64,000 nt of DNA from Candidatus Latescibacterota bacterium (GCA_963667175.2 CAXXXF010000004.1:256001-320000); one strand, 5' to 3'. Positions 1,261-44,769 are shown, numbered from the stretch's first letter. The notes: a model not told the origin generated them from the sequence alone. Translations and numbers: made by a program.

Positions 1261-1280
1261 CGGCCGTCCGGGGAGATTAG

Positions 1281-1467
1281 CAGTCCGTTGAAAAAGTCGC
1301 TCTGCAGGCGAGGGCGAGTCATTGTGGCCGCAGACAAGGCGCGCCTGTCTGCGTGCCTGCCTGCGCCGAGACGTGCTCGGCAGGCAGGCGGACACGCACA
1401 GGCAGGCAACGCCGTATTTCGGTCACAAGGGCCGGACGCAGACCGGATGGACTTTATCAACGGGCTG
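1281..1467. mobile_element. MITE copy 1 (187 bp) with 18-bp terminal inverted repeats
   Basis: CAGTCCGTTGAAAAAGTC ... GACTTTATCAACGGGCTG; related copies at 3026, 11836 and 44680. Confidence 0.85.
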
Positions 1468-2999: not shown

Positions 3000-3025
3000 G
3001 AAAGCAACCCATTGAGGACGTCTAA

Positions 3026-3295
3026 CAGTCCGTTGAAAAAGTCGCTCCGCAGGCGAGGCCGAGGCATTGTGGCCGAAGACAAGGCGCGCCTGTCTGCGTG
3101 CCTGCCTGCGCCGAGACGTGCTCGGCAGGCAGGCGGACACGCACAGGCAGGCGACCGACGCGAATCCCTGGATTCAGGGAGGGAGCGCCTGCCTGCCGCA
3201 GGCAGGCAACACGGTAATCCGGCCACAAGGGCCGGACACCTGTCTGCGTGCGAACGCACAGGCAGGCAGCCCGGATGTGCTTTTTCAAAGGGCTG
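3026..3295. mobile_element. MITE copy 2 (270 bp) between atpE and atpF
   Basis: CAGTCCGTTGAAAAAGTC ... GCTTTTTCAAAGGGCTG; carries palindromic modules at 3089-3151, 3188-3206 and 3239-3266. Confidence 0.85.
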
Positions 3296-6806: not shown

Positions 6807-8393
<1,587 letters not shown>

Positions 8394-8418
8394 GGTCTGT
8401 ATTACACACGGGGCACTG

Positions 8419-8823
8419 ATGCCGGGGTTTCATCTCGAGATTGTAACACCGGAAAAAACGGTTTATTCGGGTGAAGTGGAGAGCCTGCGCGCGCCTGGCG
8501 TCGAGGGCGGGTTCGGCGTGCTTGCCGGGCACCATCCGATGCTGACCGCGCTGGACATCGGCTGGATGTCCTTTTCCGACCGGGAGCATGGATCGAGGTC
8601 GGTCGCGATCGGCGGCGGGTTCGCGGAAGTCCAGCGCGATAGCGTTACCATTCTTGCGGAGACGGCGGAATTCGCGGAGGAAATCGACGTGACCCGAGCA
8701 GAAGGCGCCAGGGATCGCGCCCGTGAAAGGCTGGCGCGAAAACGGGAACAGCAGATCGACGAGACGCGGGCGAACCTGGCCCTGGCCCGGGCGGCCAACC
8801 GGCTGCGGATCGGGGGACTTTAG
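8419..8823 (+). CDS. atpC: ATP synthase F1 subunit epsilon
   Basis: LEIVTPE, GVLAGHHP, GGFAEV. Confidence 0.96.
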   Translation: MPGFHLEIVTPEKTVYSGEVESLRAPGVEGGFGVLAGHHPMLTALDIGWMSFSDREHGSRSVAIGGGFAEVQRDSVTILAETAEFAEEIDVTRAEGARDRARERLARKREQQIDETRANLALARAANRLRIGGL

Positions 8824-8853
8824 ACCTCCATTTCAGACAAGGTGTTTCCATGA

Positions 8854-8884
8854 ATGGGTGGGTTTTGAAACCCGCCCGTTTTTA
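8854..8884 (+). terminator. Probable intrinsic terminator of the atp operon (REP-like hairpin + T run)
   Basis: atgggtgggttt-tg-aaacccgcccgt followed by ttttt. Confidence 0.6.
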
Positions 8885-8901
8885 TTGGCTCTCAGCCTAA
8901 C

Positions 8902-9168
8902 GGCGGGCAACAACAAAGGTTGCCCCTACAACAAGGATTCGCAACGCAACGCGGGCGGTTCGCGAACCGCCCCGACACAAAGACGGGTTCCCCGTTCTGC
9001 TCCCCCTCTCCCTCCGGGAGAGGGGGCCTGCCTGCCGAGCAGAACTCGGCGCAGGCAGGCCGGGGGGAGAGGTCCCGGGAGCGAGGGCATCCTGCCCTCG
9101 GAACGCCCCTCGCGGTCCTGTCTCTTCACGGCGTTGACGTCATTGGGTTGGTCTTGATTCAAGCTGAC
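8902..9168. repeat. Cluster of REP-like palindromes, including a CCCCTCTCCC...GGGAGAGGGG repeat with a nested 33-bp CCTG...CAGG palindrome (9027-9059)
   Basis: gcgggcaac..gttgcccctac; cgggcggttcgcgaaccgcccc; the nested unit is identical to 43786-43818. Confidence 0.8.
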
Positions 9169-9190
9169 CACTGTCTTTACGAGGTTCTAC

Positions 9191-9943
9191 ATGTCCAATG
9201 CTACGATTGACCTCCTGATGTCACACCGAAGTGTCCGCCGGTTCCAGAACCGGCCGCTGCCCGACGGCGTCCTGGAGACCCTGATCCGGTGCGGGCAGCA
9301 GGCGAGCACGTCCAGCAACCTGCAGGCCTACACGGTCATCCACGTAGCAGATCCAGAGCGGAAGAAGAGACTGGCCGAACTGTGCGCCGACCAGGTGCAG
9401 ATTCACCAGAGTGCGGCGTTTCTGGCCTTCTGCGCGGACCTGCACCGGGACTGGATGGCCAACCGGATGCACGACGCGGAACGGTTTGACGGGGACTACG
9501 CGGAGGCCTTGATGATCGCGACGGTGGACGTGGCGCTGATGATGCAGAACGTGGCGATTGCCGCGGAATCGCTGGGACTGGGCATCTGTATGATCGGCGC
9601 GATGCGGAACAACCCGAAGTCGGTGGGCAAGTTGCTGGATCTGCCTCCGTACGTCGTGGCCGTGGCCGGCTTCTGCATCGGGTATCCGGCGCAGGATCCG
9701 GAGGTCAAACCGCGGTTGCCTCTGGACGCCGTTTTGCATCGCGAGCGGTATCTCTGCGACGAGACGCATCAATTGGCCATGGAGGAATACGACGAGACCA
9801 TGGTCGATTTCTATACCTCGCAGGGGATGCACGAAGGCGACCAGCGATGGACGACGGTCATGGCCGACCGCACCGGGCAATTCCACGCCCGCGCCGAACT
9901 GGACGAGTTCCTGACGGCCCAGGGGTTCCGGGTGCGTCGCTGA
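9191..9943 (+). CDS. NADPH-dependent nitroreductase (NfsA/FRP family)
   Basis: HRSVRRF, ASTSSNLQAY, AAESLGLG, KPRLP. Confidence 0.92.
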   Translation: MSNATIDLLMSHRSVRRFQNRPLPDGVLETLIRCGQQASTSSNLQAYTVIHVADPERKKRLAELCADQVQIHQSAAFLAFCADLHRDWMANRMHDAERFDGDYAEALMIATVDVALMMQNVAIAAESLGLGICMIGAMRNNPKSVGKLLDLPPYVVAVAGFCIGYPAQDPEVKPRLPLDAVLHRERYLCDETHQLAMEEYDETMVDFYTSQGMHEGDQRWTTVMADRTGQFHARAELDEFLTAQGFRVRR

Positions 9944-10030
9944 ATCCTGTCCGGCTTGCCTTGTTCTTGACGTCCGGCGGAACATTGTGTATACATTGAA
10001 AAACCGGTGCCTCAACGAAAGTATAGGACA

Positions 10031-10342
10031 ATGGCTGATTCGAAAGTAGACAGGCTCGTTGGCGAGGTCGTAAAGCGTGTGAATCCACTGCGAATCGTGC
10101 TCTTCGGCTCAGCAGCCAGAAACGAGTCAGGGCTGCAGGGCGACATCGATCTTCTGGTCGTCATGCCCGACGGCGCCCATCGGCGGCGAACCGCGCAGAA
10201 ACTCTACCGAGAAGTCAAAGGCCTGGCCGTACCATTCGATATTGTCGTCGCAACCGAACAGGACCTGAAAGAGCACAAAAACAATGACGGCCTGATCTAC
10301 AAGAACGCCCTCAGGGAAGGCATTGAAGTCTATGGGCTCTGA
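10031..10342 (+). CDS. Minimal nucleotidyltransferase (MNT antitoxin)
   Basis: LFGSAAR...GDIDLLVV; overlaps the downstream HEPN gene. Confidence 0.9.
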   Translation: MADSKVDRLVGEVVKRVNPLRIVLFGSAARNESGLQGDIDLLVVMPDGAHRRRTAQKLYREVKGLAVPFDIVVATEQDLKEHKNNDGLIYKNALREGIEVYGL

Positions 10343-10733
10343 GACTCAGGTTCCAGGGAATGCCGAAGACTGGCTGCGCTACGCCAGGAGCGACCTGAAG
10401 CTTGCCCGCATCGATAGGCCAGAGGGTGTCTTGCTGGAGAACCTTTGTTTTCATGCTCAACAGGCTGTAGAAAAGACGCTAAAGGCAGTTCTTGTGTTCC
10501 CTAAGGTACATTTCCCCACCACCCACAATATTCGAACATTGATCGATTTCTTACCTGATATGGATATTCCGGAGTTCGTAGAAGACTCCGCAGCTCTGAC
10601 GGACTATGCCGTTGTGTCTCGATATCCCGGAAACATCGAGCCGGTCGAAGAAAACAAATACCGGCATTCAATTTTCGTTGCAGAGGCAGTCCTGAGTTGG
10701 GCAGAGACGTTGATTTACAAAGGCGATACATGA
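10332..10733 (+). CDS. HEPN domain protein
   Basis: WLRYARSDL, CFHAQQAVEKTLKA, THNI, SRYP. Confidence 0.9.
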   Translation: MGSETQVPGNAEDWLRYARSDLKLARIDRPEGVLLENLCFHAQQAVEKTLKAVLVFPKVHFPTTHNIRTLIDFLPDMDIPEFVEDSAALTDYAVVSRYPGNIEPVEENKYRHSIFVAEAVLSWAETLIYKGDT

Positions 10734-11095
10734 ACAACGTCATTGAACATATCGATCGCCTGAAATCGGAGTTGGGCGAATTACGGCCATTGCCTTCCGA
10801 GGTCGTAGGGCGAATCGAGCAAAAGCTCCGGATCAAGTCCAATTACCACTCGAATGCCATCGAAGGCAACAGCCTGACGCTTGGAGAAACGAAAAGCGTG
10901 ATCCTCCATGGACTGTCCGCCCATGGCATGAGGATGCGGGATCATTTTGATATTGAGAGCCATGATGATGCGACAAAGGCAGTTGAGGATGCAGTCAAAC
11001 ACAACGAACCTCTCAATGAGATCTTCATTCGGAATCTCCACAAAATACCGTTGAAAGCGCCCGATAGAATCGCTACGTCCAATGAAGGCGTATAG
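10730..11095 (+). pseudogene. Truncated Fic-family gene (N-terminal ~110 aa paralog of 15867-17192, no catalytic motif)
   Basis: YHSNAIEGNSLTLGET is nearly identical to the full Fic; similarity stops after FIRNLHKIPLKAP. Confidence 0.85.
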
Positions 11096-11150
11096 ATTGG
11101 CCGATTTCTCAGCTAATGACGACAAGACGACTCGACAGGAGTAATTAGTA

Positions 11151-11846
11151 ATGAGAATTGAGCCCGAAATCTCCGGAGTTTCGCTCGTTATGCTTGGCCA
11201 TTTCAATCCTGTGATATTTACACCCGCCTGGTTCGGATGGCATCAGCTTCTACCTAAGAGGGTAATCGAAGTTGCAGATACGAACATTGCGCATCCCCAA
11301 ATTTCGAGCTTTAACGCCGATTGGCTCAACATTCAAGTCGTTCCCGAACGTATGCAAATGGATACAACCCAGCCGCCCTACGTTCGGATTCGAGACCTGG
11401 CTGTCCGAATATTTCTCGAACACCTTCACCATACACCGCTAACCTCTGTCGGTATTAACCGTGACGTCCACTTTTGCGTGCAGGACCATAAACAGAGAGA
11501 CCGACTCGGAAAATTATTGGCGCCCGCAGAGCCTTGGGGTGATTGGGCAGCAAAACTTGGCCTGGATGGAAACCGCGGTGGAATGGTATCCCTTACGATG
11601 AGACAGGTAGACCCTTGTAACAGACCGGTTGGCGGGCAAATTAACGTTAAGGTGGAGCCATCCAATAGGGTCGCGCAAGAGCTTCCCGGGGTATACGTTG
11701 GGGTCAATGACCACTACGTTGTAGGAAATGTGGAACCACAGACGCAAACCAGCGAAGTCGTTGAGTTGATCGAGGAGAAATTCGACGATTCATTGCGCCG
11801 TGCCGACGAAATTATCGATCACATAATGTCCTTGACAGCCCGTTGA
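11151..11846 (+). CDS. Uncharacterised protein with GxFNPxIFxPxWF motif (cassette gene 1)
   Basis: 231-aa ORF, CAGGAG RBS, motifs GHFNPVIFTPAWF, HTPLTSVGIN, VNDH; its stop codon lies inside a MITE TIR. Confidence 0.8.
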   Translation: MRIEPEISGVSLVMLGHFNPVIFTPAWFGWHQLLPKRVIEVADTNIAHPQISSFNADWLNIQVVPERMQMDTTQPPYVRIRDLAVRIFLEHLHHTPLTSVGINRDVHFCVQDHKQRDRLGKLLAPAEPWGDWAAKLGLDGNRGGMVSLTMRQVDPCNRPVGGQINVKVEPSNRVAQELPGVYVGVNDHYVVGNVEPQTQTSEVVELIEEKFDDSLRRADEIIDHIMSLTAR

Positions 11847-12206
11847 TAGAGTCCATCCGGGCTGCCTGCCTGTGCGTTCGTACGCAGACAGGCGTCCGGC
11901 CCTTGTGGCCGAAATACTGCGTTGCCTGCCTGCAGCAGGCAGGCGCTCCCTCCCCGAATCCAGGGAATCGCGTCGGTCGCATGCTTTGTCTTCGGCCACA
12001 ATGACAAGTGTTCCGTCCCGGAAATAGATTGCCGAAATTCGACCGCCGAGTCGCCCGGCTGGCAAGACGCCTGAGCGAGGCGACCTGCCCAGGGTCACCA
12101 AGCGAAGGCAACGCCGCCAGACGGGATGAATCGGCGGATGGATGGTGACATATTTCCGGGAAGGGACACCATACCTCGCCTGCAGAGCGACTTTTTCAAC
12201 GGACTG
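11836..12206. mobile_element. MITE copy 3 (371 bp, inverted) containing a second nested MITE at 12008-12169
   Basis: CAGCCCGTTGATAGAGTC ... GACTTTTTCAACGGACTG; inner IRs GTGTTCCGTCCCGGAAATA / TATTTCCGGGAAGGGACAC. Confidence 0.85.
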
Positions 12207-12223
12207 TTAACGGAGGAACAATA

Positions 12224-12835
12224 ATGCCAGATTCAGCAGCCGCACCTGAAAGCAATAGCTTACATAGTACATCCAGCCTCAACGATAATTCGAGCGATGC
12301 CAGTGCGCCTAACCAATTGCTTCGGGAAAGATATGCGGATCGGATTACGGCGACATTACAACAGCCTCGCATCCCTCCAACGCACGACACTGATGTCGCG
12401 GACACTACGATTGAGGATCAAGTGACGTCGGCCCGAATCGGATCCGATTTAGGCAAAGTAATAGATTTTCCTGATTTAGCCGGGGTTTCAAGAACCGCGC
12501 CCAGCAGCAGTTTCCATTTGCTTCAGGAATGGGAAGGCTACGTAATCTTGAAGGGAAAGGAAGACTTCACGGTACGGCTATTGGATCTAACCACAGGTTC
12601 CACGTATGAAGAGGAAGAAGCTGTTATACCATTTTCCGAGATCACGGACGACGAACGCAAGCGCATGGGTCCTGGTAGCATTTTTCGCTGGGTCATTGGC
12701 TACGAGCGATCCGCCAGTGGGACCAAACAGCGCGTATCCCGGATCGTCTTTCGCGATCTTCCTGTGCTTACGAAACAAGAAATAATGGAGGCCGACCAAC
12801 GGGCTAAGAGGACGTCTCGGTTATGGGCAGATTGA
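12224..12835 (+). CDS. Uncharacterised protein, low-complexity N-terminus + LQEWEGYV...FRWVIGYE domain (cassette gene 2)
   Basis: GGAGGA RBS, 203 aa, overlaps the start of the MBL gene. Confidence 0.8.
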   Translation: MPDSAAAPESNSLHSTSSLNDNSSDASAPNQLLRERYADRITATLQQPRIPPTHDTDVADTTIEDQVTSARIGSDLGKVIDFPDLAGVSRTAPSSSFHLLQEWEGYVILKGKEDFTVRLLDLTTGSTYEEEEAVIPFSEITDDERKRMGPGSIFRWVIGYERSASGTKQRVSRIVFRDLPVLTKQEIMEADQRAKRTSRLWAD

Positions 12836-13009
12836 CAGCAGTTGGCGAACCACCAGAACAGGACGTCCTGGAAGTAACCCTATTGGGACCTGGCTATGGA
12901 GAATGCATTTTACTTCACATAGGTAACGGGAGTTGGGTAATTGTCGATTCCTGCATTGATGTGGATTCGCGCCCGGCAGCGTTGGCATATTTTCAAGACC
13001 TCGGTCTAA

Positions 13010-14562
13010 CCTTGATTCCGCAAAAATCAGGCGGCTTTCTGTAGCGCGTTGCAGATTTTCCGGTATTGTTTTTCGGTGTGTTTGTTGCGTTGTAGTCTCA
13101 GGGTGAGTCGTCCTTTTGGTCGGACGAGGTATCCGGCTTTGTTGATGAGTTCGAACCGGAGTGTGCGTATGGATTTGAGGGCCCATCGGTTGGTACTTTT
13201 CAAGGTGCGATTGCGTTGTGTCAGTCCGGTTTCGATTTGGAAGTTGGCCAGGAGGTTATGAGCGAGAATGACGAACTGTTGCCAAGCGCTATTGGCGTGG
13301 TAATCGTTAGTGGGAATGGTATCGAAGCTGAGTCCGGTCTTGAGTTCGCCGATGGCTTTCTCGTGTGCGCCTCGGCCTGCCATGAAGCGCCACAGCGCGC
13401 GCAACTTGAGGGGTAGGTTGGTGGCCACCGCGGAGTATTCGAAGGTGCCGTCATTGGGATCGAACAGGTCCAACTGGTAGTTCTTGCGAGTTTTATGCAT
13501 CACGCGTTTTCGAAAGATCGCTATGTTGAACGTGCGTTTCCATTTCTTGATCGTCAGCGTTGACGTGAAGCCGTCGACGCCTTTCTCGATCCTTTGCCAG
13601 TGGGTGCGTTGTTGGATTTGCTGCCGCAAGTCCAGGCCTTTCCAGAAGGGCACTTTGATGGCGTATGAGGCCTTGTTCTTGATGAGCGTTTTAAGCACGT
13701 CTTCCTTGAAATAGTCGCCATCCATACGGAATCGGAGGGTGTAGGCATCCCCCAAGCTTTCTTCGACCTGGGTAAACACGTCCTTTAGAAACGGGATGGA
13801 GGCGCTGCCGTCATTGACGTTGCCTGGACGGTTGTGCACGCCCAGAAAATGACCACTGTCGGCCAGGTAGGCGGTAATCGGATAGTAACTGGGCACTTTA
13901 CGATGGTGCGGATTATAGCCACGACGGGCACCGTCGACGTGCTTTCCCGTGCACAAGACCGTGCCGTCGACGTCGATGGTTAACGTGCGGGCGCGTAGCG
14001 ATGGGAGCGCATCGGCTACAACGTCGGCGTTGAGGCGTTTCAGGGCTTCCACGCCACGCCCCGTAAAGCGCTTCAAAAAGCGGCTGACACTGTCGTCGGA
14101 GGGCAGGTCACACAGTCCACAAAACCGCTGTATCAGGGGGTCCCCTTTTAGGAAATTCAGATGTCGCAGCCGTCGCCCACCAACCACTAACAAGCCCAAG
14201 ATCACGCGAGAAAGACTCACTACACCAAAATCACCGCCACACACCACACCACGGAGTGAGCCACGCAATTGACGGTTCCATTCAATCTTTCGCAAAAAAC
14301 GCATGAACGGTTCCAATCCCGCATACGACGTGAGGCCTTCACCGGTGAATTCCATCTCCAATTTGTCGTTGACACGACACCGTAAATCCGCTTTCTTTCG
14401 TCTCACAGCAGGTGGCCTTTCGTTTTGAGTTAAATGGGGGTATTGTCGCTTCCCAATATACCAAAATGAAAGGCCTTTTCCTATTGAAAATTATACACTT
14501 ATTCACAATTTGACGCCAACTTCATTGTAACGGAACTCAACCGCTTTTTTGCGGAATCAAGG
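13010..14562 (-). mobile_element. IS1380-family insertion sequence, 1553 bp
   Basis: 17-bp perfect TIR CCTTGATTCCGCAAAAA; 4-bp target duplication CTAA (13006-13009, 14563-14566). Confidence 0.93.
13027..14406 (-). CDS. IS1380-family DDE transposase
   Basis: LTSYAGL, TIDVDGT, RPGN, FRMDGDY, RGAHEKAIGELK. Confidence 0.93.
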   Translation of the reverse strand: MRRKKADLRCRVNDKLEMEFTGEGLTSYAGLEPFMRFLRKIEWNRQLRGSLRGVVCGGDFGVVSLSRVILGLLVVGGRRLRHLNFLKGDPLIQRFCGLCDLPSDDSVSRFLKRFTGRGVEALKRLNADVVADALPSLRARTLTIDVDGTVLCTGKHVDGARRGYNPHHRKVPSYYPITAYLADSGHFLGVHNRPGNVNDGSASIPFLKDVFTQVEESLGDAYTLRFRMDGDYFKEDVLKTLIKNKASYAIKVPFWKGLDLRQQIQQRTHWQRIEKGVDGFTSTLTIKKWKRTFNIAIFRKRVMHKTRKNYQLDLFDPNDGTFEYSAVATNLPLKLRALWRFMAGRGAHEKAIGELKTGLSFDTIPTNDYHANSAWQQFVILAHNLLANFQIETGLTQRNRTLKSTNRWALKSIRTLRFELINKAGYLVRPKGRLTLRLQRNKHTEKQYRKICNALQKAA

Positions 14563-15507
14563 CTAAACCCTGCTGATGTCGTTCGCCTTATTGTCGCGTC
14601 TCATTGGCATGACGACCACATACGAGGAATTGGAGAATTGGTCGATGTCTGCGCCAATGCGCATTTCTGCTGCGCATCTGCCCTTCGAGCAGAGGAATTT
14701 CTTGCCATGATGGACTCTGTAGCAAGCCGTCCGATGTCTAATGTAAGTTCTGGAATGCAGGAACTCTATACGGTCCGATCTCTTCTCGAAAAGAGATCCG
14801 TCAAACCCCTTTTCGCAATAGCAAATCGTAGAATCTTCAGGTGTGACAATTGCGAATTATGGTCCCTCTCGCCATTTGATAAGCATGTCGATGTCTTTTT
14901 GCGCCAAATTGACCGAATCCGACCTCAAGAAGGGGCGACAAAAAGGCGAATACACAGCTTGACTCCCAACGAAATTTCGGTTGTCCTGTTAGTCAAAATC
15001 GACAATACGGCGATTCTCCTGGGTTCCGATCTTGAAAGGCCGGGCTGGTTGGAAATACTCGCCTCAAATGAAAGACCGAATTGCAAAGCGTCGGTATTCA
15101 AGATTCCGCACCATGGTTCCCGAAACGCCCACGAGGATCGAGTTTGGACTGAGATGCTACACGACAATCCGATAGCAACTCTCACTCCATGGAAGAAAGG
15201 TGGACGAAGTTTGCCAGATGAAACGGATGTAACACGAATTCTATCTTTCACCCGAAAGGCTTACGCTACCTCAGCGTTACGAGTTTCCAATCGCAAACCC
15301 GCACGCAGACGAGCTAAGACGGTCGAAAAGTCCATTAGAGAAGTTAGCAAAAGGATCGGCGCCATAGCCCGCTCTTCCGGAATGATCCGGCTCCGCAGGG
15401 AGTTCGCGTCAAAACTCGACTGGGATATTACGATTGTTGCGCCAGCTCGCCAATTGATGTAATTAGCGGTGGTTCAAATTCAGAATTGGCAACACTACGC
15501 TTTTAGA

Positions 15508-15815
15508 ATAGGGTAAGCCGGTCCGTCGGCACAGGATGTTTCTACCGTTGGCTGCGCGCGTTGCCTGCTTCCCCAACGACGGCGGCCTTCCCCGATCGAT
15601 AGACGGACGGCGCCCGTATTATCTTTTTCTAGGCCTGCTCAGCGTTCACTGCGCGTTTCGGCCTGCATACTCGCCAAGTCGCCTTGCGGCCCTCGACACC
15701 GGAGGCTTGGGAGAGGTCGTTACCCTCATTCCCCGCACCGATTGCTACCGACCGAAGCAACAATTGTCGGGTGGGTCTCTCACCCACTGGAGTTCCGCGC
15801 CTTTTCATGGCGCAC
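15508..15815 (-). ncRNA. Group II intron remnant (5' domain I segment plus a possible 3' terminus; no RT ORF)
   Basis: Minus strand starts GTGCGCCATGAAAAGGCGCG...CCAGTGGGTGAGAGACCCACCCG...GGTAAC...GTGAACGCTGAGCAGGCC...GGGGAAGGC and ends ...GGCTTACCCTAT. Confidence 0.7.
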
Positions 15816-15866
15816 TGTCGATTTAAGGCTAAGTTGGGAAGAATCACTGATCTGCAGAAACAGACC

Positions 15867-17192
15867 ATGAGCAACGTCATTGAAAAAATCGATGCGTTGA
15901 AAGCGGAGTTGGACGCATTGCGGCCGCTGCCACCCGATGTTGTGGGGCGAATTGAGCAAAAGCTCCGAATTGAGTCGAACTATCACTCCAATGCCATCGA
16001 AGGCAACAGCCTGACCCTCGGAGAAACGAGAAGCCTGATTCTGCACGGCCTCACTTCTCATGGGAAGTCCATGCGCGACCATCTGGATATCGAGGGGCAC
16101 GACGAAGCGGTAAAGGCGATTGCGGATGCAGTCGAACGAAACGAATCTCTCAATGAAGTCTTCATCAGAAATCTTCACGGCGTACTGCTGAAGCAGCCGT
16201 ATGAGATTGACGCAATCAAGCCGGATGGGGAACCGACGAAGCGACTCATTTCCATCGGTAAATACAAGACACTTTCCAATAACGTGAGAACGACTACGGG
16301 TGAAATCTACTATTTCACGCCCCCCGACCAGGTAAAGCCGGCAATGAGCGACCTCATCGACTGGTATCGGCGAGCCGAGAAAGAGGGAGAGCATCCGATT
16401 GTCATCGCGGCGACGTTTCACTATCGTTTCGTCAGGATTCATCCGTTTGACGATGGGAACGGGCGCATGGCTCGGCTTCTGATGAACATGATCCTGATTA
16501 AACACGGCTATACTGTGGCAGTTGTACCCATACAACAAAGAAGCCGATACATCAGCACGCTGGAACAGGCCGACAATTCAGAAGACCTGTCCGAGTTTAT
16601 TGAGTGTATCGCGGAAAATTGCGAAAATACCCTGAATCTCCATCTGCGCGCCGCCCGTGGCGAGGACATCGAAGACGTCGAGGACATCGATAAAGAGATC
16701 GCGCTCTTTAAACGATCGATTCAAACTGGCGGAGGTGAGTTGTTTCAGGCCAGAGCGTACGCTGGGAACGTGCTGTATCCGCTTTTTTCCTATTGCAAAG
16801 AAAAATGTGAGCAATTTTCCGGCATGTTCGAAAGTGTCAATGCAGATAATGGTGAATGTTCTGTGAGAAATGCGGATGACAACGTCTCAAGTCTTGATCT
16901 GACTAAGGATCAAGTTAAAGCTTGGCCGGAATACGCCGTGTACGTTTCTACATCTTTGCTGATTTCCCTCAATCAATTTCAGGCCAAACAAGATGCCGAT
17001 TTTTTAATCCAAATTGAGAATGAAGTTGGATCGCATGGCTCCGTCTGGCGGTTTATGTCAATGGGACTTGACTACGAAAGAGAATATGCGGGTCAGGACC
17101 TGGAGGTACTCAAGAGGATGTTTAACGATATTATCAGGCAACTCATGGTAAGCCTCTCAGAGATTTCGGACGATCGGAAGGATGAGGAATAA
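15867..17192 (+). CDS. Fic family protein (class II, N-terminal inhibitory motif)
   Basis: HPFDDGNGRMAR, SNAIEGN. Confidence 0.93.
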   Translation: MSNVIEKIDALKAELDALRPLPPDVVGRIEQKLRIESNYHSNAIEGNSLTLGETRSLILHGLTSHGKSMRDHLDIEGHDEAVKAIADAVERNESLNEVFIRNLHGVLLKQPYEIDAIKPDGEPTKRLISIGKYKTLSNNVRTTTGEIYYFTPPDQVKPAMSDLIDWYRRAEKEGEHPIVIAATFHYRFVRIHPFDDGNGRMARLLMNMILIKHGYTVAVVPIQQRSRYISTLEQADNSEDLSEFIECIAENCENTLNLHLRAARGEDIEDVEDIDKEIALFKRSIQTGGGELFQARAYAGNVLYPLFSYCKEKCEQFSGMFESVNADNGECSVRNADDNVSSLDLTKDQVKAWPEYAVYVSTSLLISLNQFQAKQDADFLIQIENEVGSHGSVWRFMSMGLDYEREYAGQDLEVLKRMFNDIIRQLMVSLSEISDDRKDEE

Positions 17193-17238
17193 CGAGGCGA
17201 ACGGACGATATGGCGCGAATTCCGGACGTAGGCAAACC

Positions 17239-18408
17239 ATGAGAAAATACCAGAAGACCCATCCCTGGATCACGTTTCAAGTCGATCTTCGTGATGTGCC
17301 GTATTCGCTTTGGATGAAACTGGGCGAATGCGCTTCCAAGATCGAGCACGTCTCCAGGGCGCCGCTCGTTCATGAATCGGCGGAGGACCTCTATAAGGTT
17401 TATCTGGCCAAGGGCGTCCATGCCACGACCGCCATTGAAGGAAATACCCTGTCCGAAGAGGATGTGTTGCGGCATATAGAGGGAAAACTGGAACTGCCCC
17501 CCTCGCGGGAGTATCTGGTCCAGGAGATTGACAACATTATTAAGGCGATCAACGCTACAATCAAGGGAATGCGCGAGGGGTCGGTCCAGCCTCTGGATTT
17601 CGAATGGATCAAAGAGGTGAATAGAGCCGTTCTCGACAAACTCGACCAACAGGAAGGTTCCATTCCGGGCACGATTCGAACCCACTCCGTGGGCGTGGGC
17701 AGGCGATATCGAGGCGCGCCCGCGGAGGATTGCGAACACCTGCTGGAGAAACTATGCAACTGGCTACGAGATGAATTCAAGGTACCGGCAGGCGAGGAGA
17801 TTACGTTTGCAATCATCAAGGCGGTAATGGCCCATCTTTATGTGGCATGGATCCATCCGTTTGGAGACGGCAACGGCCGCACGGCGAGGTTGCTGGAATT
17901 CGCAATCCTGTTGCGGTCGGGCATACCGGTACCCGCCTGTCACCTATTGAGCAGCCATTATAGCGCCACGCGTGTCGAATACGCGCGCCAACTCGCGCGG
18001 ACCAGCCAATCCGGTGGAAAGGTCGTACCCTTTCTCGCCTATGCCGTACAGGGATTCCTCGACGGGCTTCACGGTCAACTGGAGATGATCTGGAAGCAGC
18101 ATCTGGATATCGTTTGGCAGCACCACATATATCAGCATTTTCCAAGGCAGGATACTGTCGCTGGAAAAAGGCGCCGCGCCCTGCTTCTGGATCTATCGGC
18201 CGGCGATCAAGCAGTAGATCCATTGTCATTAATGATGACAGGTGACCGCTTAGGCGAGTCCTACAGGGAAAAACCATGGATCATCATGAAGGATCTACAA
18301 TGGCTCACGGAGAAGAATTGGATTACAAAGGAAGGGAACAGCTACTGCGCCAATAAGGAAACAATGCTGAAACGCCGGCCGTTTCGTGTGCCTTCAAGTG
18401 GGAGTTAA
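17239..18408 (+). CDS. Fic family protein with C-terminal wHTH-like tail (alternative start 17182)
   Basis: HPFGDGNGRTAR, TTAIEGN. Confidence 0.92.
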   Translation: MRKYQKTHPWITFQVDLRDVPYSLWMKLGECASKIEHVSRAPLVHESAEDLYKVYLAKGVHATTAIEGNTLSEEDVLRHIEGKLELPPSREYLVQEIDNIIKAINATIKGMREGSVQPLDFEWIKEVNRAVLDKLDQQEGSIPGTIRTHSVGVGRRYRGAPAEDCEHLLEKLCNWLRDEFKVPAGEEITFAIIKAVMAHLYVAWIHPFGDGNGRTARLLEFAILLRSGIPVPACHLLSSHYSATRVEYARQLARTSQSGGKVVPFLAYAVQGFLDGLHGQLEMIWKQHLDIVWQHHIYQHFPRQDTVAGKRRRALLLDLSAGDQAVDPLSLMMTGDRLGESYREKPWIIMKDLQWLTEKNWITKEGNSYCANKETMLKRRPFRVPSSGS

Positions 18409-18417
18409 CTGGAATTG

Positions 18418-18732
18418 ATGAGCGCAAGAATCGACGTTCCAAAGAAAAAGATCGCCACCTTCTGCCGGCGAAACGGTATCCGTCGCATGGCCCTGTTCGG
18501 CTCGGTACTGCGCGACGACTTCACGCCCGAGAGCGACGTGGATGTACTCGTGGAGTTCGAGCCAGGCAAGACGCCGGGACTGGCGTTCTTCACCATGCAG
18601 GACGAGTTGTCGGAAATATATGGGAGAAGAGTGGATCTCCACACCTTCCGGGGCGTCGAAAGCAACCCCAATTGGCTGCTTCGGAAGGAAATACTCGGCT
18701 CGGCGGAGGCGGTCTATGACCAGGCGGGATGA
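18418..18732 (+). CDS. Minimal nucleotidyltransferase (MntA-type antitoxin)
   Basis: LFGSVLRDDFTPESDVDVLVEF, GRRVDL. Confidence 0.92.
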   Translation: MSARIDVPKKKIATFCRRNGIRRMALFGSVLRDDFTPESDVDVLVEFEPGKTPGLAFFTMQDELSEIYGRRVDLHTFRGVESNPNWLLRKEILGSAEAVYDQAG

Positions 18733-18778
18733 CCTGCCGCGGCTGATAGAGCAACTGGAATCCATCGTCAAAGAATAG
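18716..18778 (+). pseudogene. Internally deleted DUF86/HepT toxin remnant (20 aa)
   Basis: MTRRDD-LPRLIEQLESIVKE overlaps the MNT stop and resembles fused N- and C-termini of DUF86 proteins. Confidence 0.6.
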
Positions 18779-18905
18779 GTGTACCAACACAGCGCGGTCA
18801 GATGGTTGGATGTGCCCGTTGCTCCGGGTTCTTCGACCATCTGGCCGCGTTTGGTACATAGGGATATTCAAGGGCGTCCTGCGGGATCTCCCAGTCACCC
18901 CCATA

Positions 18906-19652
18906 TCAGACGGTAGCGGCGGTCCGCATTGCGGCGGCGGCCAGGAGGTAGAGAACCCAGAGACCGAAAATCCCAATCACGGCAAGCTTTGTCCGAATAC
19001 CCGCAACAGCTCCAAGGCCGACGGAAACCAAAAGATACTTCCAGACGGCGAAGACGGTGACCATGGACAGGAAGTGATGCATGTAACTTCCTTCCATGGA
19101 TTTCGGCGCCAGCAGTCCCAGGCCGAGTTGGACCGTTGGCGCATCCCAAACCATACCGAGCAGCAACGCAACAACGGCGGCGGGTACCGCCACGAGCGAA
19201 CTGTAGCTCACAACGGCCAGCGTCTTTTTGTACGTACCGTCGCCGCCGAATACGAAATTGGCGAGCGCCAGAAAAATCGCCGCCTGGACAAAGATTGTGA
19301 TGGCGGTACCAATGGGCGGGAGGACAACAGCGCTAAGACCCATCATCCGTTGCGCGCTTTCCAGGGCCATCGTCCGCTGTTCCTCTGTAAGGGATTCGAG
19401 GGATTCGTCTTTCGCGAATTGCTCCTGCATCGCCTGCATCCCGGCTGTCTGAGCGGCGGGCATGAGCAGATACGCGGAGAACATTCCGATGATTGCGATG
19501 ACGATCATGGGGAGATACCAGTCCCTGTTTTCGGTATGCGCATTGACGGAAGCGAACGTCCGCCCCGGCGAAAGCAGAGCGCCGACCATGCGCCCGCCAA
19601 TCCCGATCTCCTCCGCGCTATCGACGTCCCGGACGTCCGTGGGTTCGTCCAT
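18906..19652 (-). CDS. YIP1-family membrane protein
   Basis: LLSPGRTF..., GGDGTYKKTLAVVSYS, five TM segments; GGAGGAG RBS. Confidence 0.85.
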   Translation of the reverse strand: MDEPTDVRDVDSAEEIGIGGRMVGALLSPGRTFASVNAHTENRDWYLPMIVIAIIGMFSAYLLMPAAQTAGMQAMQEQFAKDESLESLTEEQRTMALESAQRMMGLSAVVLPPIGTAITIFVQAAIFLALANFVFGGDGTYKKTLAVVSYSSLVAVPAAVVALLLGMVWDAPTVQLGLGLLAPKSMEGSYMHHFLSMVTVFAVWKYLLVSVGLGAVAGIRTKLAVIGIFGLWVLYLLAAAAMRTAATV

Positions 19653-19888
19653 TTTACTCTCCTCCGTATGAATGGCTCGTGAATTCCGGCTGATCCCGGC
19701 GACTCGAATGGTGCACGCCTCGCGTAATATAACCTCTCTCGCAGAGAATTCAACCGGGATAACGCGACGCGTCACACGTCCACCCGGATGTTTAGCAGTT
19801 GCGGAACACAGGAAATATCAACAAAATTAGACTCGAGGGGGTGTCCTGGAGTTCGACCCGGTGACGTGGTCTGAAAGGAGTGGACCGA

Positions 19889-22867
19889 ATGTCAATGAGG
19901 AAAAAGCGAAGCCGATTCGTCAGCGCGGCGATGCGGTCGAACGCGGTGGCGAATGCGAAGAGACACGACTGGGCGAGCGAGCGACAGGAGCGCGCGGTTG
20001 CGGCGGCCGGCGAGTGGGTCGGCCGCACCGACGATGCGTTGTGGGGCATGGTCACCGCGCAGGAGTTGCCGCGGACGGTCTACACCAACGAAGGGGTGAC
20101 GTACAAGGGACAGCAGCCCTATTGCCCCGGATGCGGCGAAGCGGCCCCGGCGAAATCCGGGCGCGAATGGTGGGAGTTCGACGACGCCAGGCCATGGAAA
20201 ATCTGGTGCGAACACTGCGGAGAGGTGTATCCGAAAAACGACTTCGGCGCCTTCTACAGGACGGCCCTGGACGAGCACGGGATGTTCCGTCGTGAGTTGG
20301 GCGACCGGTCGCTGCTGTTCAATGCCGATCATCCGGATCCGGACGACCCCCTGCACGAACGCTACGTCGACGACGGGTATGGCATGTTCGACGAGCAGGG
20401 CAATCGACACGATATCATCGCATACTACAATTTCGAAGCCGTGTGGCGCCGGATACAGCAGGGCGTTGCCGCGCTGTCCGACGCGTACGCGCTCACCAAT
20501 GACCGGCGCTACGCACATAAAGCGAGCGTTCTGCTGGACCGGATCGCCGACGTCTATCCGGAGATGGACTACCTGCCGCTGCACGAAATGGGATTTCAGC
20601 ACAGCCAGGGCGGTTCCGGGAGAGGTCGGATCGAGGGTTGCATCTGGGAAACCTTCGTCGCACAGGGCCTCGCGCGCAGCTACGACGTCATCTTCGACGG
20701 CCTTCAGGGCGACGAAGAACTGGTGGCTTTCTGCTCGGACAGAGCCGGGAAATATGACCTGGGGGACAAAGAGAGCATCGCCGCAATCTGCGGACATATC
20801 CACGATCACCTGCTTTTAGAGGTGCTTGCCTCTGTTAAGGACGGCCGGATCAGCGGTAACACGGGCATGAACCACACGTCCCTCGCCACCGCCGCGATCG
20901 CTCTGGACCATCCGGAACTGACGCCCGAATGGCTGGACTGGCTGTTCCATCCCGGGTTTCCCGGAGACCACTCAGCTCAGCATGATCCGGTGTCGTGGGT
21001 GCTGACCGAGGGGCTGGACCGGGATGGCATGGGCGGCGAGTGCGGGGGATACGGTCTCATCTGGACCCGCCACATGCGGGAACTGGCACAGATTCTGTCC
21101 GCATGGCCGGAATACACGAAACACAATCTCGTCGAGGATTACCCGAAGCTCAAACAGGCTTATCTCGTGGAGTCCCGGCTGAACGTCCTGGATGGCATGA
21201 TGCCCAATACGGGCGACAGCGGCGCCGTGGGCGCGTGGGGCCGGCAGGGCGATGCCGCGACCTATGTCCGGGCGTACCGGCTGTACGGAGACCCGCGTTT
21301 CGCGGCCCTGGCCTGGCACGAACACTCCGCGCACGGTTCCACGCTGCGCCTGGACGACGATATCTTCCGCGAGGATCCGGACGCGCTGATCCGTGAGATT
21401 CGAAACGTCGGGCGAAAAGGCCCGGACAACCTCACGAGCGAACATTTCGGGCGGTACGGACAGGCGCAATTGCAGACCGAACGGCCGGAAAACGGCCGCG
21501 CCGTGTTCATCCACTACGGGCAGGGCAAGGGCCACTCCCACCACGATGCTCTCAACCTGGGACTGCTGGCGAACAACGTGGCGATGATGCCGGACCTCGG
21601 CTATCCCGAATATACGGGAACGTGGCCCAAACGGCACGCGTGGACCGCCAACACGATCAGTCACAATACGCTGCTGGTGGGGGATACGAGGTCGGCGTAC
21701 AGCCCCGGCGGACAGGTCGAGTACTTCGCCGTCGAACCGCCCCTGAGAGCGATCCAGGTGGATGCGCCAGACGCCTATGAGGATTTGCAAACCTACCGGC
21801 GCACCGTCGCCCTGGTCGACGTGGACGAGGACAACAGCTACGTGCTGGACGTGTTCCGGGCACGGGGCGGGAGCAACCACCGTCTGTCCTGGCATGGCGC
21901 CGCGGAAACGGCTGACGTTGCCGGCCTGGAACTCGTCGTTCAGAAAGGCGGCGCCTTCGCGGGTTCCGACGTTTCGTTCGCCACGCTGGACGGCGAGAAC
22001 GCAGACTTCTTCAAAGAGAGCGGCTTCACGTACCTGTACGACGTGGAACGCTCACCCGGGGCGGTCCGGAAGCCCTACCGGGTCGACTGGAAGATCGAAG
22101 ATATCCACGGACGAATTTCGGAAGGCTGCGAGCCGCACCTTCGCCTGCACGCGCTTACGCCCTGCGATGAGGTGGCGCTCGCCACAGGGGATTCGCCGCG
22201 GCGGCTGCAGCGGCCCAGGTATCTGATCCAGAGCAGGCTGGGCGAGGAGATGCAAAGCATATATCTCAACGTCCTGGAACCTTACGATACAAATCGGTTC
22301 ATCTCTCGGGTGCGAGAACTGGAGGTGAGGCACGACGGGGATGCCTGCTGTGCCGCAGCCGTGGCCGTGGAACTATTCGACGGCCACACGGACGTCCTGA
22401 TCAGCTGTGAGGAAGCGATGGAAGTCGAAGTGGACGGCGGGATCAGGTTCGACGGTACCCTTGGACTGATCCGCCTGGCGAGGGATGAGGTGAAGCTGAT
22501 GCGAATGATCGGCGGCACGTCACTCGCTGTCGGTGGCGTTGAACTGACAGCGGAACGCCCGGCATGGCGCGGGAGGGTGACAGGGACCGACGCTTCCGAC
22601 CCGGCGAACAATCTGGTTGACCTGGATCCGCCACTTCCGGCCGGTCCCGACCTCGTCGGCCGCACGATCCATTTCATCAACGATCTGCCGATGGACACGA
22701 GCTACAGGATCGCGGCCGTCACGAACGGCGGCGTCTCAACGGGCGACATTACGATTGTCCGGGGGCTAAGGGAAGGCACGGATCTCGCGGGTGGGTACAC
22801 TTACCTGGTCAATCCCGGGGACGAATACATCGTCCCGTCGATCGCAGGGCTCGGAGAAATGACCTAA
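19889..22867 (+). CDS. Heparinase II/III-family polysaccharide lyase-like protein with N-terminal CxxC...CxxC
   Basis: GHSHHDALNLGL, DLGYP, TISHNTLLV, YRRTVALVD; CPGC...CEHC. Confidence 0.8.
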   Translation: MSMRKKRSRFVSAAMRSNAVANAKRHDWASERQERAVAAAGEWVGRTDDALWGMVTAQELPRTVYTNEGVTYKGQQPYCPGCGEAAPAKSGREWWEFDDARPWKIWCEHCGEVYPKNDFGAFYRTALDEHGMFRRELGDRSLLFNADHPDPDDPLHERYVDDGYGMFDEQGNRHDIIAYYNFEAVWRRIQQGVAALSDAYALTNDRRYAHKASVLLDRIADVYPEMDYLPLHEMGFQHSQGGSGRGRIEGCIWETFVAQGLARSYDVIFDGLQGDEELVAFCSDRAGKYDLGDKESIAAICGHIHDHLLLEVLASVKDGRISGNTGMNHTSLATAAIALDHPELTPEWLDWLFHPGFPGDHSAQHDPVSWVLTEGLDRDGMGGECGGYGLIWTRHMRELAQILSAWPEYTKHNLVEDYPKLKQAYLVESRLNVLDGMMPNTGDSGAVGAWGRQGDAATYVRAYRLYGDPRFAALAWHEHSAHGSTLRLDDDIFREDPDALIREIRNVGRKGPDNLTSEHFGRYGQAQLQTERPENGRAVFIHYGQGKGHSHHDALNLGLLANNVAMMPDLGYPEYTGTWPKRHAWTANTISHNTLLVGDTRSAYSPGGQVEYFAVEPPLRAIQVDAPDAYEDLQTYRRTVALVDVDEDNSYVLDVFRARGGSNHRLSWHGAAETADVAGLELVVQKGGAFAGSDVSFATLDGENADFFKESGFTYLYDVERSPGAVRKPYRVDWKIEDIHGRISEGCEPHLRLHALTPCDEVALATGDSPRRLQRPRYLIQSRLGEEMQSIYLNVLEPYDTNRFISRVRELEVRHDGDACCAAAVAVELFDGHTDVLISCEEAMEVEVDGGIRFDGTLGLIRLARDEVKLMRMIGGTSLAVGGVELTAERPAWRGRVTGTDASDPANNLVDLDPPLPAGPDLVGRTIHFINDLPMDTSYRIAAVTNGGVSTGDITIVRGLREGTDLAGGYTYLVNPGDEYIVPSIAGLGEMT

Positions 22868-44679: not shown

Positions 44680-44769
44680 CAGCCCGTTGAGAAAGTCCAT
44701 CCGGTCTGCCTGGCTGGCCGGCAGACAGGCGTCCTGACTCGCCTGCGGAGCGACGTTCTCAACGGATTC
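44680..44769. mobile_element. MITE copy 4 (minimal ~90 bp, inverted)
   Basis: CAGCCCGTTGAGAAAGTC ... CGACGTTCTCAACGGATTC; abuts the rraA stop codon. Confidence 0.75.

Follow-up and report, generated by a model that had tools for sequence, protein, structure and literature searches.

Among described anti-phage systems, the closest to the locus treated here is DS-42, a three-gene unit of Escherichia coli from the DefensePredictor screen of DeWeirdt et al. (Science 2026, PMC13092281), in which units with their native promoter were cloned in MG1655 and tested on 24 phages, and a DS was called when plaques were smaller or plating went down at least ten-fold. The rows available from Table S6 of that paper list WP_001198055.1 (a metallo-hydrolase of MBL fold; MBL, metallo-beta-lactamase), WP_001024069.1 and WP_249925928.1 (both hypothetical) as PRO1, that is DS-42, flagged random = 1 and defensive = 1. 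According to Table S7, DS-42 lowers phage Bas1 from 5e6 to 4e5 plaque-forming units (PFU), about 12-fold, with smaller plaques marked 'Y' and a -log of the efficiency of plating (EOP) of 1.10. What is in print on DS-42 amounts to supplementary-table rows, one phage phenotype and no published mechanism. Passages of PMC12799240 and bioRxiv 2025.11.14.688446 describe ComEC-like MBLs of other defence systems as DNase proenzymes, with an active site that stays closed off by two loops until these are cleaved by a partner trypsin, caspase or subtilisin. Here we analyse a block of three co-oriented genes, A, B and C, at positions 11151-15462 of a 64,000-nt stretch from Candidatus Latescibacterota bacterium (GCA_963667175.2 CAXXXF010000004.1:256001-320000), the whole of which we call the window. 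Sequence comparison places the block in the DS-42 family, as a divergent member that has been inactivated. We put the probability at roughly 0.7 that it is a decayed three-gene anti-phage operon of this family in which C would be a latent DNase effector, governed by A and B without a protease.

The three-gene block and its likeness to DS-42

A first-pass annotation of the window had singled out three co-oriented, lower-GC genes as a candidate undescribed defence system, with the MBL gene interrupted by an insertion sequence (IS). The genes are as follows.

11151-11846, plus strand: gene A (gene 1), 231 aa, homologue of DS-42A, without known domain
12224-12835, plus strand: gene B (gene 2), 203 aa, variable acidic N-terminal part of ~95 aa and conserved C-terminal domain of ~108 aa, homologue of DS-42B
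12823-13009, plus strand: 5' part of gene C (gene 3), coding for residues 1-62 of the MBL hydrolase, with a 13-nt overlap with gene B
14567-15462, plus strand: 3' part of gene C, residues 63-360, with HxHxDH, GSDLE, HHGS and a basic C-terminal tail

The features described for these genes were all recovered. Their GC content is 0.49-0.51 against 0.61-0.63 in the flanks, and the motifs GHFNPVIFTPAWF, HTPLTSVGIN and VNDH all lie in the 231-aa open reading frame (ORF) of A. The N-terminus of B, which had been called low-complexity, is rich in Ser/Thr/Asn/Pro and acidic over residues 1-95 (56% small/polar, net charge -7); the motifs LQEWEGYV, DLT, FRWVIGYE and FRDLP are carried by the conserved C-terminal half. 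With the IS removed, 12823-13009 joined to 14567-15462 gives one open frame of 360 aa containing SHWHDDH at 74-80, GSDLE at 215 and HHGS at 244. By hydropathy, with no dedicated signal-peptide predictor, none of the three proteins has a hydrophobic segment, the Kyte-Doolittle 19-residue maxima being 1.27, 0.47 and 1.37, all <1.6.

The word 'undescribed' did not survive. Each of the three genes has a remote homologue in DS-42, with the gene order unchanged, and the trio in this way matches an already named system at the remote-homology level, an outcome that the annotation had itself listed as speaking against its proposal. The order of the trio is kept at 20-33% identity across an Adhaeribacter plasmid, a Pantoea plasmid and E. 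coli lambdoid prophages. On the Adhaeribacter swui plasmid the three genes stand in the same order at 28-33% identity (tblastn) and are annotated as hypothetical, hypothetical and MBL fold metallo-hydrolase. For a more distant version on a Pantoea agglomerans conjugative plasmid, hhalign gave 97.8% for the A-like and 76% for the B-like protein, and the MBL showed 30% identity (tblastn). Seeded with the Pantoea version, a DNA search recovered the E. coli trio from 14 of 5426 complete genomes, whose copies share at least 99% identity. In ECOR29 and strain F5 the trio is part of a lambdoid prophage, where it is flanked by the genes for antiterminator Q and holin and encoded on the strand opposite to theirs. 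The proteins annotated in ECOR29 (A WP_249925928.1, B WP_001024069.1, C WP_001198055.1) carry the very accessions given for DS-42 in Table S6.

The three links to DS-42 differ in strength. With a profile of 115 A sequences (A3), hhalign aligned A to ECOR29 DS-42A at 98.4% probability (E 5.7e-15, 185 columns, 20% identity). The alignment of B to DS-42B reached 90.3% probability (E 1.5e-6) at 23% identity over 71 columns of the C-terminal domain, and as a probable homology this is the weakest of the three. For C, BLASTP of the intact relative P0241 (360 aa), which is 97% identical over the 274-aa C-terminal gene C ORF of the window, matched ECOR29 DS-42C at 31% identity, E 2e-49. The HHpred rows available from Table S8 of PMC13092281 agree in assigning DS-42 protein 3 to cd07731, a ComA/ComEC-like MBL (residues 12-251, probability 0.998), and give protein 2 a weak 'Dimerization' hit (PF16892 CHS5_N, residues 108-166, probability 0.78); those rows hold none for DS-42A (protein 1), and the file's 'PRO1' count leaves no room for one.

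The defence reading of the trio in the first-pass annotation fared better: in a plaque screen the complete E. coli counterpart of the trio was rated defensive, and it lowered the plating of one phage when cloned alone, and we regard this reading as well supported. A full-text literature search for the three DS-42 accessions returned no paper, and a search on MBL defence systems of prophage lysis regions gave nothing relevant among the matches listed. The enterobacterial A, B and C proteins belong to the PHROGs unknown-function families phrog_36401, phrog_29493 and phrog_28593, and no match to A or to the Pantoea MBL turned up in the phage collection by tblastn. We also observed that RefSeq calls the A-type protein WP_000143147.1 of E. 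coli MEI148-20EC (L086, 1501-2217) an 'anti-phage protein', and that a near-identical protein is labelled hypothetical in other assemblies. The scan with NCBIfam models covered the A proteins of L084 and L085 and matched neither.

The operon in related genomes

To place the block among its relatives, one genome per species was scanned with the A alignment. This yielded 163 relatives, and the best 80 were taken further, a selection weighted to close relatives. All 80 loci are metagenome-assembled genomes (MAGs), with titles naming Latescibacterota, Poribacteria, Gemmatimonadota, Nitrospirota, Dehalococcoidia/SAR202, Acidobacteriota, Binatia, Entotheonella, Alpha- and Gammaproteobacteria, Rhodothermales, Thermodesulfobacteriota and Spirochaetia. 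Several of these lineages are mainly known from marine sponge microbiomes. The family is patchy over more than 10 phyla, and identity to window gene A is 50-68% across phyla. Word-indexed homologues numbered 442 for A, 1180 for B and 215 for C, and the A profile matched 2448 50%-identity cluster representatives at E<=1e-3.

Hidden Markov models (HMMs) of B and C were then run over all ORFs of the 80 loci, and the three-gene synteny whose conservation had been suggested as a check proved very regular. B lies directly 3' of A on the same strand in 79 of the 79 evaluable loci (in L002 the sequence ends 130 nt past A), and MBL sequence follows A-B in 78 of the 79. C is intact in 68 loci, cut by the contig end in two (L012, L018), broken, deleted or present as a remnant in eight (L001, L022, L025, L044, L049, L052, L063, L070) and absent in one (L029). 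Order and tight spacing are kept, as expected for one conserved co-transcribed unit. A, B and C make up a tightly packed operon that travels as a unit, both by inheritance and by horizontal transfer, and it occurs on plasmids, in prophages and in defence loci. Pairwise protein distances among A, B and C correlate (Mantel r 0.61-0.78) over 68 loci, the twelve with broken or truncated genes (L001, L002, L012, L018, L022, L025, L029, L044, L049, L052, L063 and L070) being left out, which shows co-inheritance and not necessarily co-evolution. Mean pairwise identity falls from A (0.59) over C (0.53) to B (0.47).

Disruptions are unevenly spread over the three genes. A is broken in two loci (L002, L029) and B in at most one (L070); with the window included, C accounts for 10 of the 13 disruptions though it makes up 45% of the coding length (rough binomial p = 0.02, with disruption classes assigned partly by eye). 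In L049 (7272-10055) the first 136 MBL residues are fused in frame into a 927-aa ORF, apparently by a deletion that joined the MBL 5' end to a downstream gene of an Hma locus. In one 438-aa cluster representative, P0362, residues 1-229 correspond to A and residues 265-435 to positions 34-200 of the B profile; it is a candidate A-B fusion in one polypeptide that could also be a gene-calling or sequencing artefact.

Protein C is a ComEC-type MBL hydrolase, as first annotated, with its catalytic motifs intact across the family: D42, HxHxDH (H75-x-H77-x-D78..., HWHDDH), D217 and H244-H245 are invariant in 49 sequences. Its best overall match in the PDB is the MBL-fold protein 6auf (E 7e-6, N-terminal part), and over the N..S.VL...GD.E...PHHGS region it matches the ComEC MBL domains 9ic4 and 30bt (E 3e-4 to 6e-4). 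The defence models that match C best are RTasMBL, Lamassu MBL, PDC-M48B, Avs1a and 6A-MBL, all far below their family cut-offs; E values were 2e-13 to 8e-7 for the PADLOC RTasMBL model and 1e-12 to 2e-5 for the Lamassu MBL model. Weak matches to B3 beta-lactamases, glyoxalase II and RNase Z were also found. C is basic, with a pI of 9.0 and a net charge of +12 over its last 65 aa.

A and B had no match in Pfam (models to 2025), NCBIfam release 20 (June 2026) or PADLOC-DB 2.0.0 when the variants of the window, L003, Adhaeribacter, Pantoea and two E. coli loci were scanned, Pfam and the permissive scans covering the window clade only. The permissive family scans (E<=1; 115 A and 40 B members) found no protease and only scattered matches at chance level, among them Imm53 in 3 of the 115 A members (best E 0.029), and the A and B profiles matched nothing in the PDB below E 0.05. 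Among 115 diverse A sequences G16, P20 and W27 are invariant, and D82/E, N103, LAP123-125, W129, G144, P170 and N186 are also well kept; H94 reaches 78% and S171 90%, and no Cys is conserved. Since no His, Ser or Cys is invariant, an enzymatic role of A appears unlikely, and the conservation pattern would suit a scaffold or sensor better than an enzyme. A caspase or Ser-His-Asp hydrolase was considered for A and rejected for want of an invariant nucleophile. B is acidic (pI 4.9), lacks a conserved His, and has a mean consensus frequency of 0.45 in its first ~95 residues versus 0.77 in the C-terminal domain.

For the genomic context, flank ORFs of at least 90 aa were picked greedily (563) and clustered, and the 57 clusters present in two or more loci were scanned with Pfam, 26 of them also with PADLOC. 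The resulting counts of defence neighbours are lower bounds, since 346 of the 563 flank ORFs, each from a single locus, fell outside the scan. At least 35 of the 80 loci have a recognised defence neighbour, in line with the defence context that had been proposed for the trio. At least 18 of the 80 loci have a gene of the Hma system near the trio (HmaC/DUF499 ATPase, HmaB/DUF1156 methylase or HmaA PLD-SNF2 helicase), and 13 of the 80 have the trio enclosed by HmaC on one side and HmaB/HmaA on the other, often preceded by a DUF7680 gene. The Latescibacterota relatives closest to the window have as neighbours type III Mod (8 loci) and Res (4), Fic (9) and MNT (5) genes. The interval between HmaC and HmaB holds differing cassettes by genome: besides the trio, NsnAB is found between HmaC and the trio in L020 and L030, and Septu PtuAB lies between the trio and HmaB in L034, as does a PDC-S01/DUF4143 gene in L039. 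This suggests that the interval (L015, L020, L030, L034, L039 and others) is a hot spot for embedded defence genes. The excerpts available of PMC12839542 rename Hma a 'DUF499-centred BREX-related' system and report that BREX and BREX-related loci carry embedded auxiliary nucleases; 'MBL' has 0 occurrences in its main text. In four loci (L038, L047, L061, L077) the trio stands between parAB (after mnmE-gidAB) and the atp operon. The window island also starts immediately after atpD and atpC (6987-8823), and the parAB-atp region may be a recurrent integration region.

Insertions and neighbouring genes in the window

Two insertions interrupt the block, the second of which was overlooked in the first-pass annotation.

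13010-14562, minus strand: IS1380-family insertion sequence, 1553 bp, splitting gene C after codon 62
11847-12223: MITE-like (miniature inverted-repeat transposable element) repeat insertion between genes A and B, 377 nt, with further copies in the window
3023-3277 (minus strand), 1277-1439 (minus strand) and 44694-44766: partial copies of the 377-nt repeat with conserved ends

The IS1380-family element has 17-bp terminal inverted repeats (CCTTGATTCCGCAAAAA) and a 4-bp target duplication, CTAA, at 13006-13009 and 14563-14566. Its transposase is encoded at 13027-14406 on the minus strand (NF033539, 220 bits vs a cut-off of 180). There is no second copy of the element in the window and no match to it in the 80 related loci. 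The 377-nt repeat has a host-like GC content of 0.605, and it fills a gap that in the related loci amounts to a few nucleotides or is an overlap of A and B. We note that the repeats of this family are small and GC-rich, with the ends 5' ...AAAGTCCATCCGG... and 3' ...CTCGCCTGCAGAGCGACTTTTTCAACGGACTG... and variable, palindrome-rich interiors; because of these conserved ends and variable interiors they look MITE- or REP-like (REP, repetitive extragenic palindromic). As the IS splits C and the repeat uncouples A from B, the window copy is predicted to be inactive, a dead copy that could not function as a system.

Around the block the following genes were recognised.

10007-10733: overlapping MNT-HEPN pair, from family matches
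10697-11095, plus strand: truncated Fic gene, ~130 aa, left over from a full-length Fic of the kind that relatives have directly upstream of the trio
15684-17192: Fic gene, from a family match, 502-aa ORF
17182-18408: Fic gene, from a family match
18415-18732: second MNT, from a family match

The MNT-HEPN pair and Fic genes that had been placed around the block were confirmed by these family matches. Together with the trio, the MNT-HEPN pair, the second MNT and the two full Fic genes make a low-GC island of ~9 kb (GC 0.52). The two Fic 5' ends said to bracket the block are real, but they are diverged paralogues instead of a fresh duplication: 10729-11041 and 15866-16178 share 78% DNA identity, and the proteins are 71% identical over 125 aa. 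With an identity of just 78%, a target duplication made by an inserted cassette was rejected as their origin. In L005 and L006 a full-length Fic gene (493-498 aa) lies directly upstream of the trio, and the DNA of the truncated gene matches the 5' part of these, so its 3' part was lost by deletion. The 400-nt spacer from the MBL gene to the downstream Fic gene contains a match to group II intron domains D1-D4 (Rfam RF02003, 15651-15789, minus strand, 78 bits vs a gathering score of 49), probably an intron fragment as there is no D5/D6 match near it. This match overlaps an upstream extension of the 502-aa Fic ORF, whose true start is probably near 15870. A scan for promoters and terminators gave signal no better than shuffled sequence, and no tRNA was found at window positions 1-30000.

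Proposed mechanism and comparison with known systems

We suggest that C would be the effector of the intact system, a soluble ComEC-like metal-dependent DNase akin to the MBL pro-nucleases of Avs1, Lamassu, Hachiman and Canu. For the other two proteins the first-pass annotation had put forward the roles of sensor or chaperone (A) and antitoxin (B). In our view, A and/or B would keep C latent in uninfected cells without an encoded protease. A, the most conserved protein and one without a conserved catalytic set, may serve as sensor or scaffold, and B, with its acidic, disordered and variable N-terminus and a possibly dimerising C-terminal domain, may be an adaptor for the basic nuclease or its inhibitor. 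On a phage cue C would be set free, degrade DNA and halt replication, which the cell would probably pay for; that C is so often lost in nature is in keeping with a costly effector. Further, we speculate that A and B are a switch that controls a ComEC-like DNase independently of proteases, which would add a fourth mode of gating for this effector class, and that the trio is a mobile plug-in repeatedly captured by Hma/BREX-related and type III restriction-modification (R-M) systems in one fixed slot. This wider proposal is possible but doubtful at present. If it is true, the gating by A and B is built from two protein families without known fold, and the captors are systems of uncultured symbiont phyla.

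One competing idea is that A or B is an unrecognised protease that cuts gating loops of C, as for HamM, Avs1a and CanC. The nearest defence MBLs, in the excerpts of the papers describing them, are all cleavage-activated proenzymes, Canu is likewise described there as a three-gene operon with the nuclease gene last, and C aligns nearly end to end with the protease-associated models (L003 16-257 with RTasMBL 1-247 of 322; L085 15-314 with the Lamassu MBL model 9-330 of 345). By alignment ends C is also ~40 residues longer than a ComEC MBL domain between HxHxDH and HHGS. No protease family came up at E<=1 in the 115 A and 40 B members, however, and neither protein offers the residues: A has no invariant Ser/His/Asp or Cys/His set (H94 78%, S171 90%, no conserved Cys) and B no conserved His, and the available HHpred rows of PMC13092281 give a weak 'dimerisation' for DS-42B and nothing for DS-42A. 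We regard a protease partner as unlikely. The overlapping genes, the acidic partner of a basic predicted nuclease, the carriage on plasmids and prophages and the preferential loss of C would also be in keeping with a toxin-antitoxin-like addiction module that stabilises mobile elements, with C as toxin, B or A as labile antitoxin and phage protection as a by-product; the disordered tail of B might then hold a degradation signal. Such modules do not readily account for three conserved genes instead of two with A the most conserved (0.59 vs B 0.47 and C 0.53), for the many chromosomal copies inside restriction-like operons, or for the altered phage plating with the cloned E. coli operon, which makes this explanation improbable.

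The frequent siting in Hma loci (between HmaC and HmaB/HmaA in 13/80, near an Hma gene in 18/80), the type III Mod (8 loci) and Res (4 loci) neighbours and the auxiliary nucleases embedded in BREX and BREX-related loci, according to the excerpts of PMC12839542, could instead mean that the trio is an accessory effector dependent on the neighbouring DUF499-centred BREX-related or type III R-M machinery. But 62 of the 80 loci lack an Hma gene within 6 kb among the flank ORFs scanned, the plasmid and prophage versions are without Hma, and self-sufficient systems such as Septu (L034) and NsnAB (L020, L030) occupy or border the same interval. As DS-42 was defensive when cloned alone in MG1655 (PMC13092281), we find such a dependence quite improbable. 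The MBL fold is common in non-nuclease hydrolases, as the weak B3 beta-lactamase, glyoxalase II and RNase Z matches recall, and a non-defence hydrolase operon, acting for example in DNA uptake or processing or on a small-molecule substrate, was weighed as well. The patchy spread over more than 10 phyla at 50-68% identity to window gene A, a GC content unlike that of the host, the defence, prophage and plasmid contexts and the DS-42 plaque data all run counter to it, as does the lack of membrane or competence domains (22.7 bits vs 190 for the ComEC model, no transmembrane segment), and we consider it very improbable.

We accordingly prefer the reading as a decayed DS-42-family operon with a DNase gated by A and B, and several points weigh against it. 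The homology of B and DS-42B rests on 71 columns at 90% probability, and the identity of A and DS-42A is about 20%. The effect of DS-42 is small, being one row of Table S7 for one phage of the 24-phage panel (PMC13092281), and the name 'DS-42' is absent from that paper's main text. In 45 of the 80 loci the neighbours seen are housekeeping or unannotated alone (346 of the 563 flank ORFs outside the scan), and shared descent alone may be enough for the distance correlations among A, B and C. Lastly, a B-like domain occurs on an Acetobacter plasmid without a detectable A or MBL.

That plasmid is NZ_CP039845.2 of Acetobacter pasteurianus (L082, 5263-7761), where the C-terminal domain of B type (31% identity, E 2e-8) is part of a 133-aa protein that comes after a 234-aa protein without similarity to A; there is no MBL, and the neighbours include HipA, a Dcm methylase and a TaqI-like protein. 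Given this case, the B domain may also work in other modules.

Taken alone, the window is a modest finding, a dead copy in a small defence island. What is new is that an E. coli prophage trio, DS-42, is tied to a very large multi-phylum family, that the trio is recurrently embedded in BREX-related and type III R-M loci, and that a protease partner is apparently absent, leaving a ComEC-like nuclease that is seemingly protease-free in its control, unlike its recently solved relatives. The alignments, conserved residues and natural knock-outs of the family offer a guide for mutagenesis.

Among known systems, HamM (Hachiman), Avs1a (AVAST), the Lamassu and DRT MBLs and CanC resemble the predicted effector of the trio in that each is a ComEC-like MBL with a gene of its own within a defence operon, and models of such protease-gated MBLs cover most of C, at E 1e-7 to 1e-13. 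The matches stay far below the cut-offs (14-20 bits vs 420 for the NCBIfam Avs1a model), and no trypsin, caspase or subtilisin partner was found in the family scans. Canu resembles the trio in being a three-gene operon, as far as the available excerpt describes it; it was rejected as the identity of the trio, CanA being a recognisable paracaspase and A and B not. With ComEC/Rec2, C has in common HxHxDH, the N..S.VL...GD.E strand and PHHGS, but it is a soluble protein of 360 aa without membrane channel or OB domain, and by alignment ends it has ~40 extra mid-domain and ~44 extra C-terminal residues relative to 9ic4. TIGR00361 scored 22.7 bits against a cut-off of 190, and with no hydrophobic segment present C falls outside ComEC/Rec2.

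The Hma/DUF499-centred BREX-related type 2 system (PADLOC HmaABC) is a host locus of the trio in 13-18 of the 80 relatives and shares no gene with it; among the window ORFs at 7000-20000 no DUF499 ATPase, DUF1156 methylase or PLD-SNF2 helicase was found. 6A-MBL is likewise a named anti-phage system with an MBL-fold protein, and its model NF058524 matches C weakly, at 16.6-28.4 bits against a cut-off of 220, which places C outside it. A review, in the part available, gives 6A-MBL ubiquitin-related components, and the trio has none.

DS-42 is the nearest of all. It differs from the window family by its low identity (~20% for A, 23% over 71 columns for B, 31% for C) and by its site, the E. coli trio lying at the prophage Q-lysis site, whereas uncultured phyla carry the window clade in islands on their chromosomes, frequently within Hma or type III R-M loci, with the window copy interrupted. 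In common are the order A, B, C(MBL) of co-oriented genes for proteins of ~238, ~190 and 363 aa, the tight spacing, though this is broken in the window by the 377-nt repeat and the IS, and the residence of both on mobile or defence DNA.

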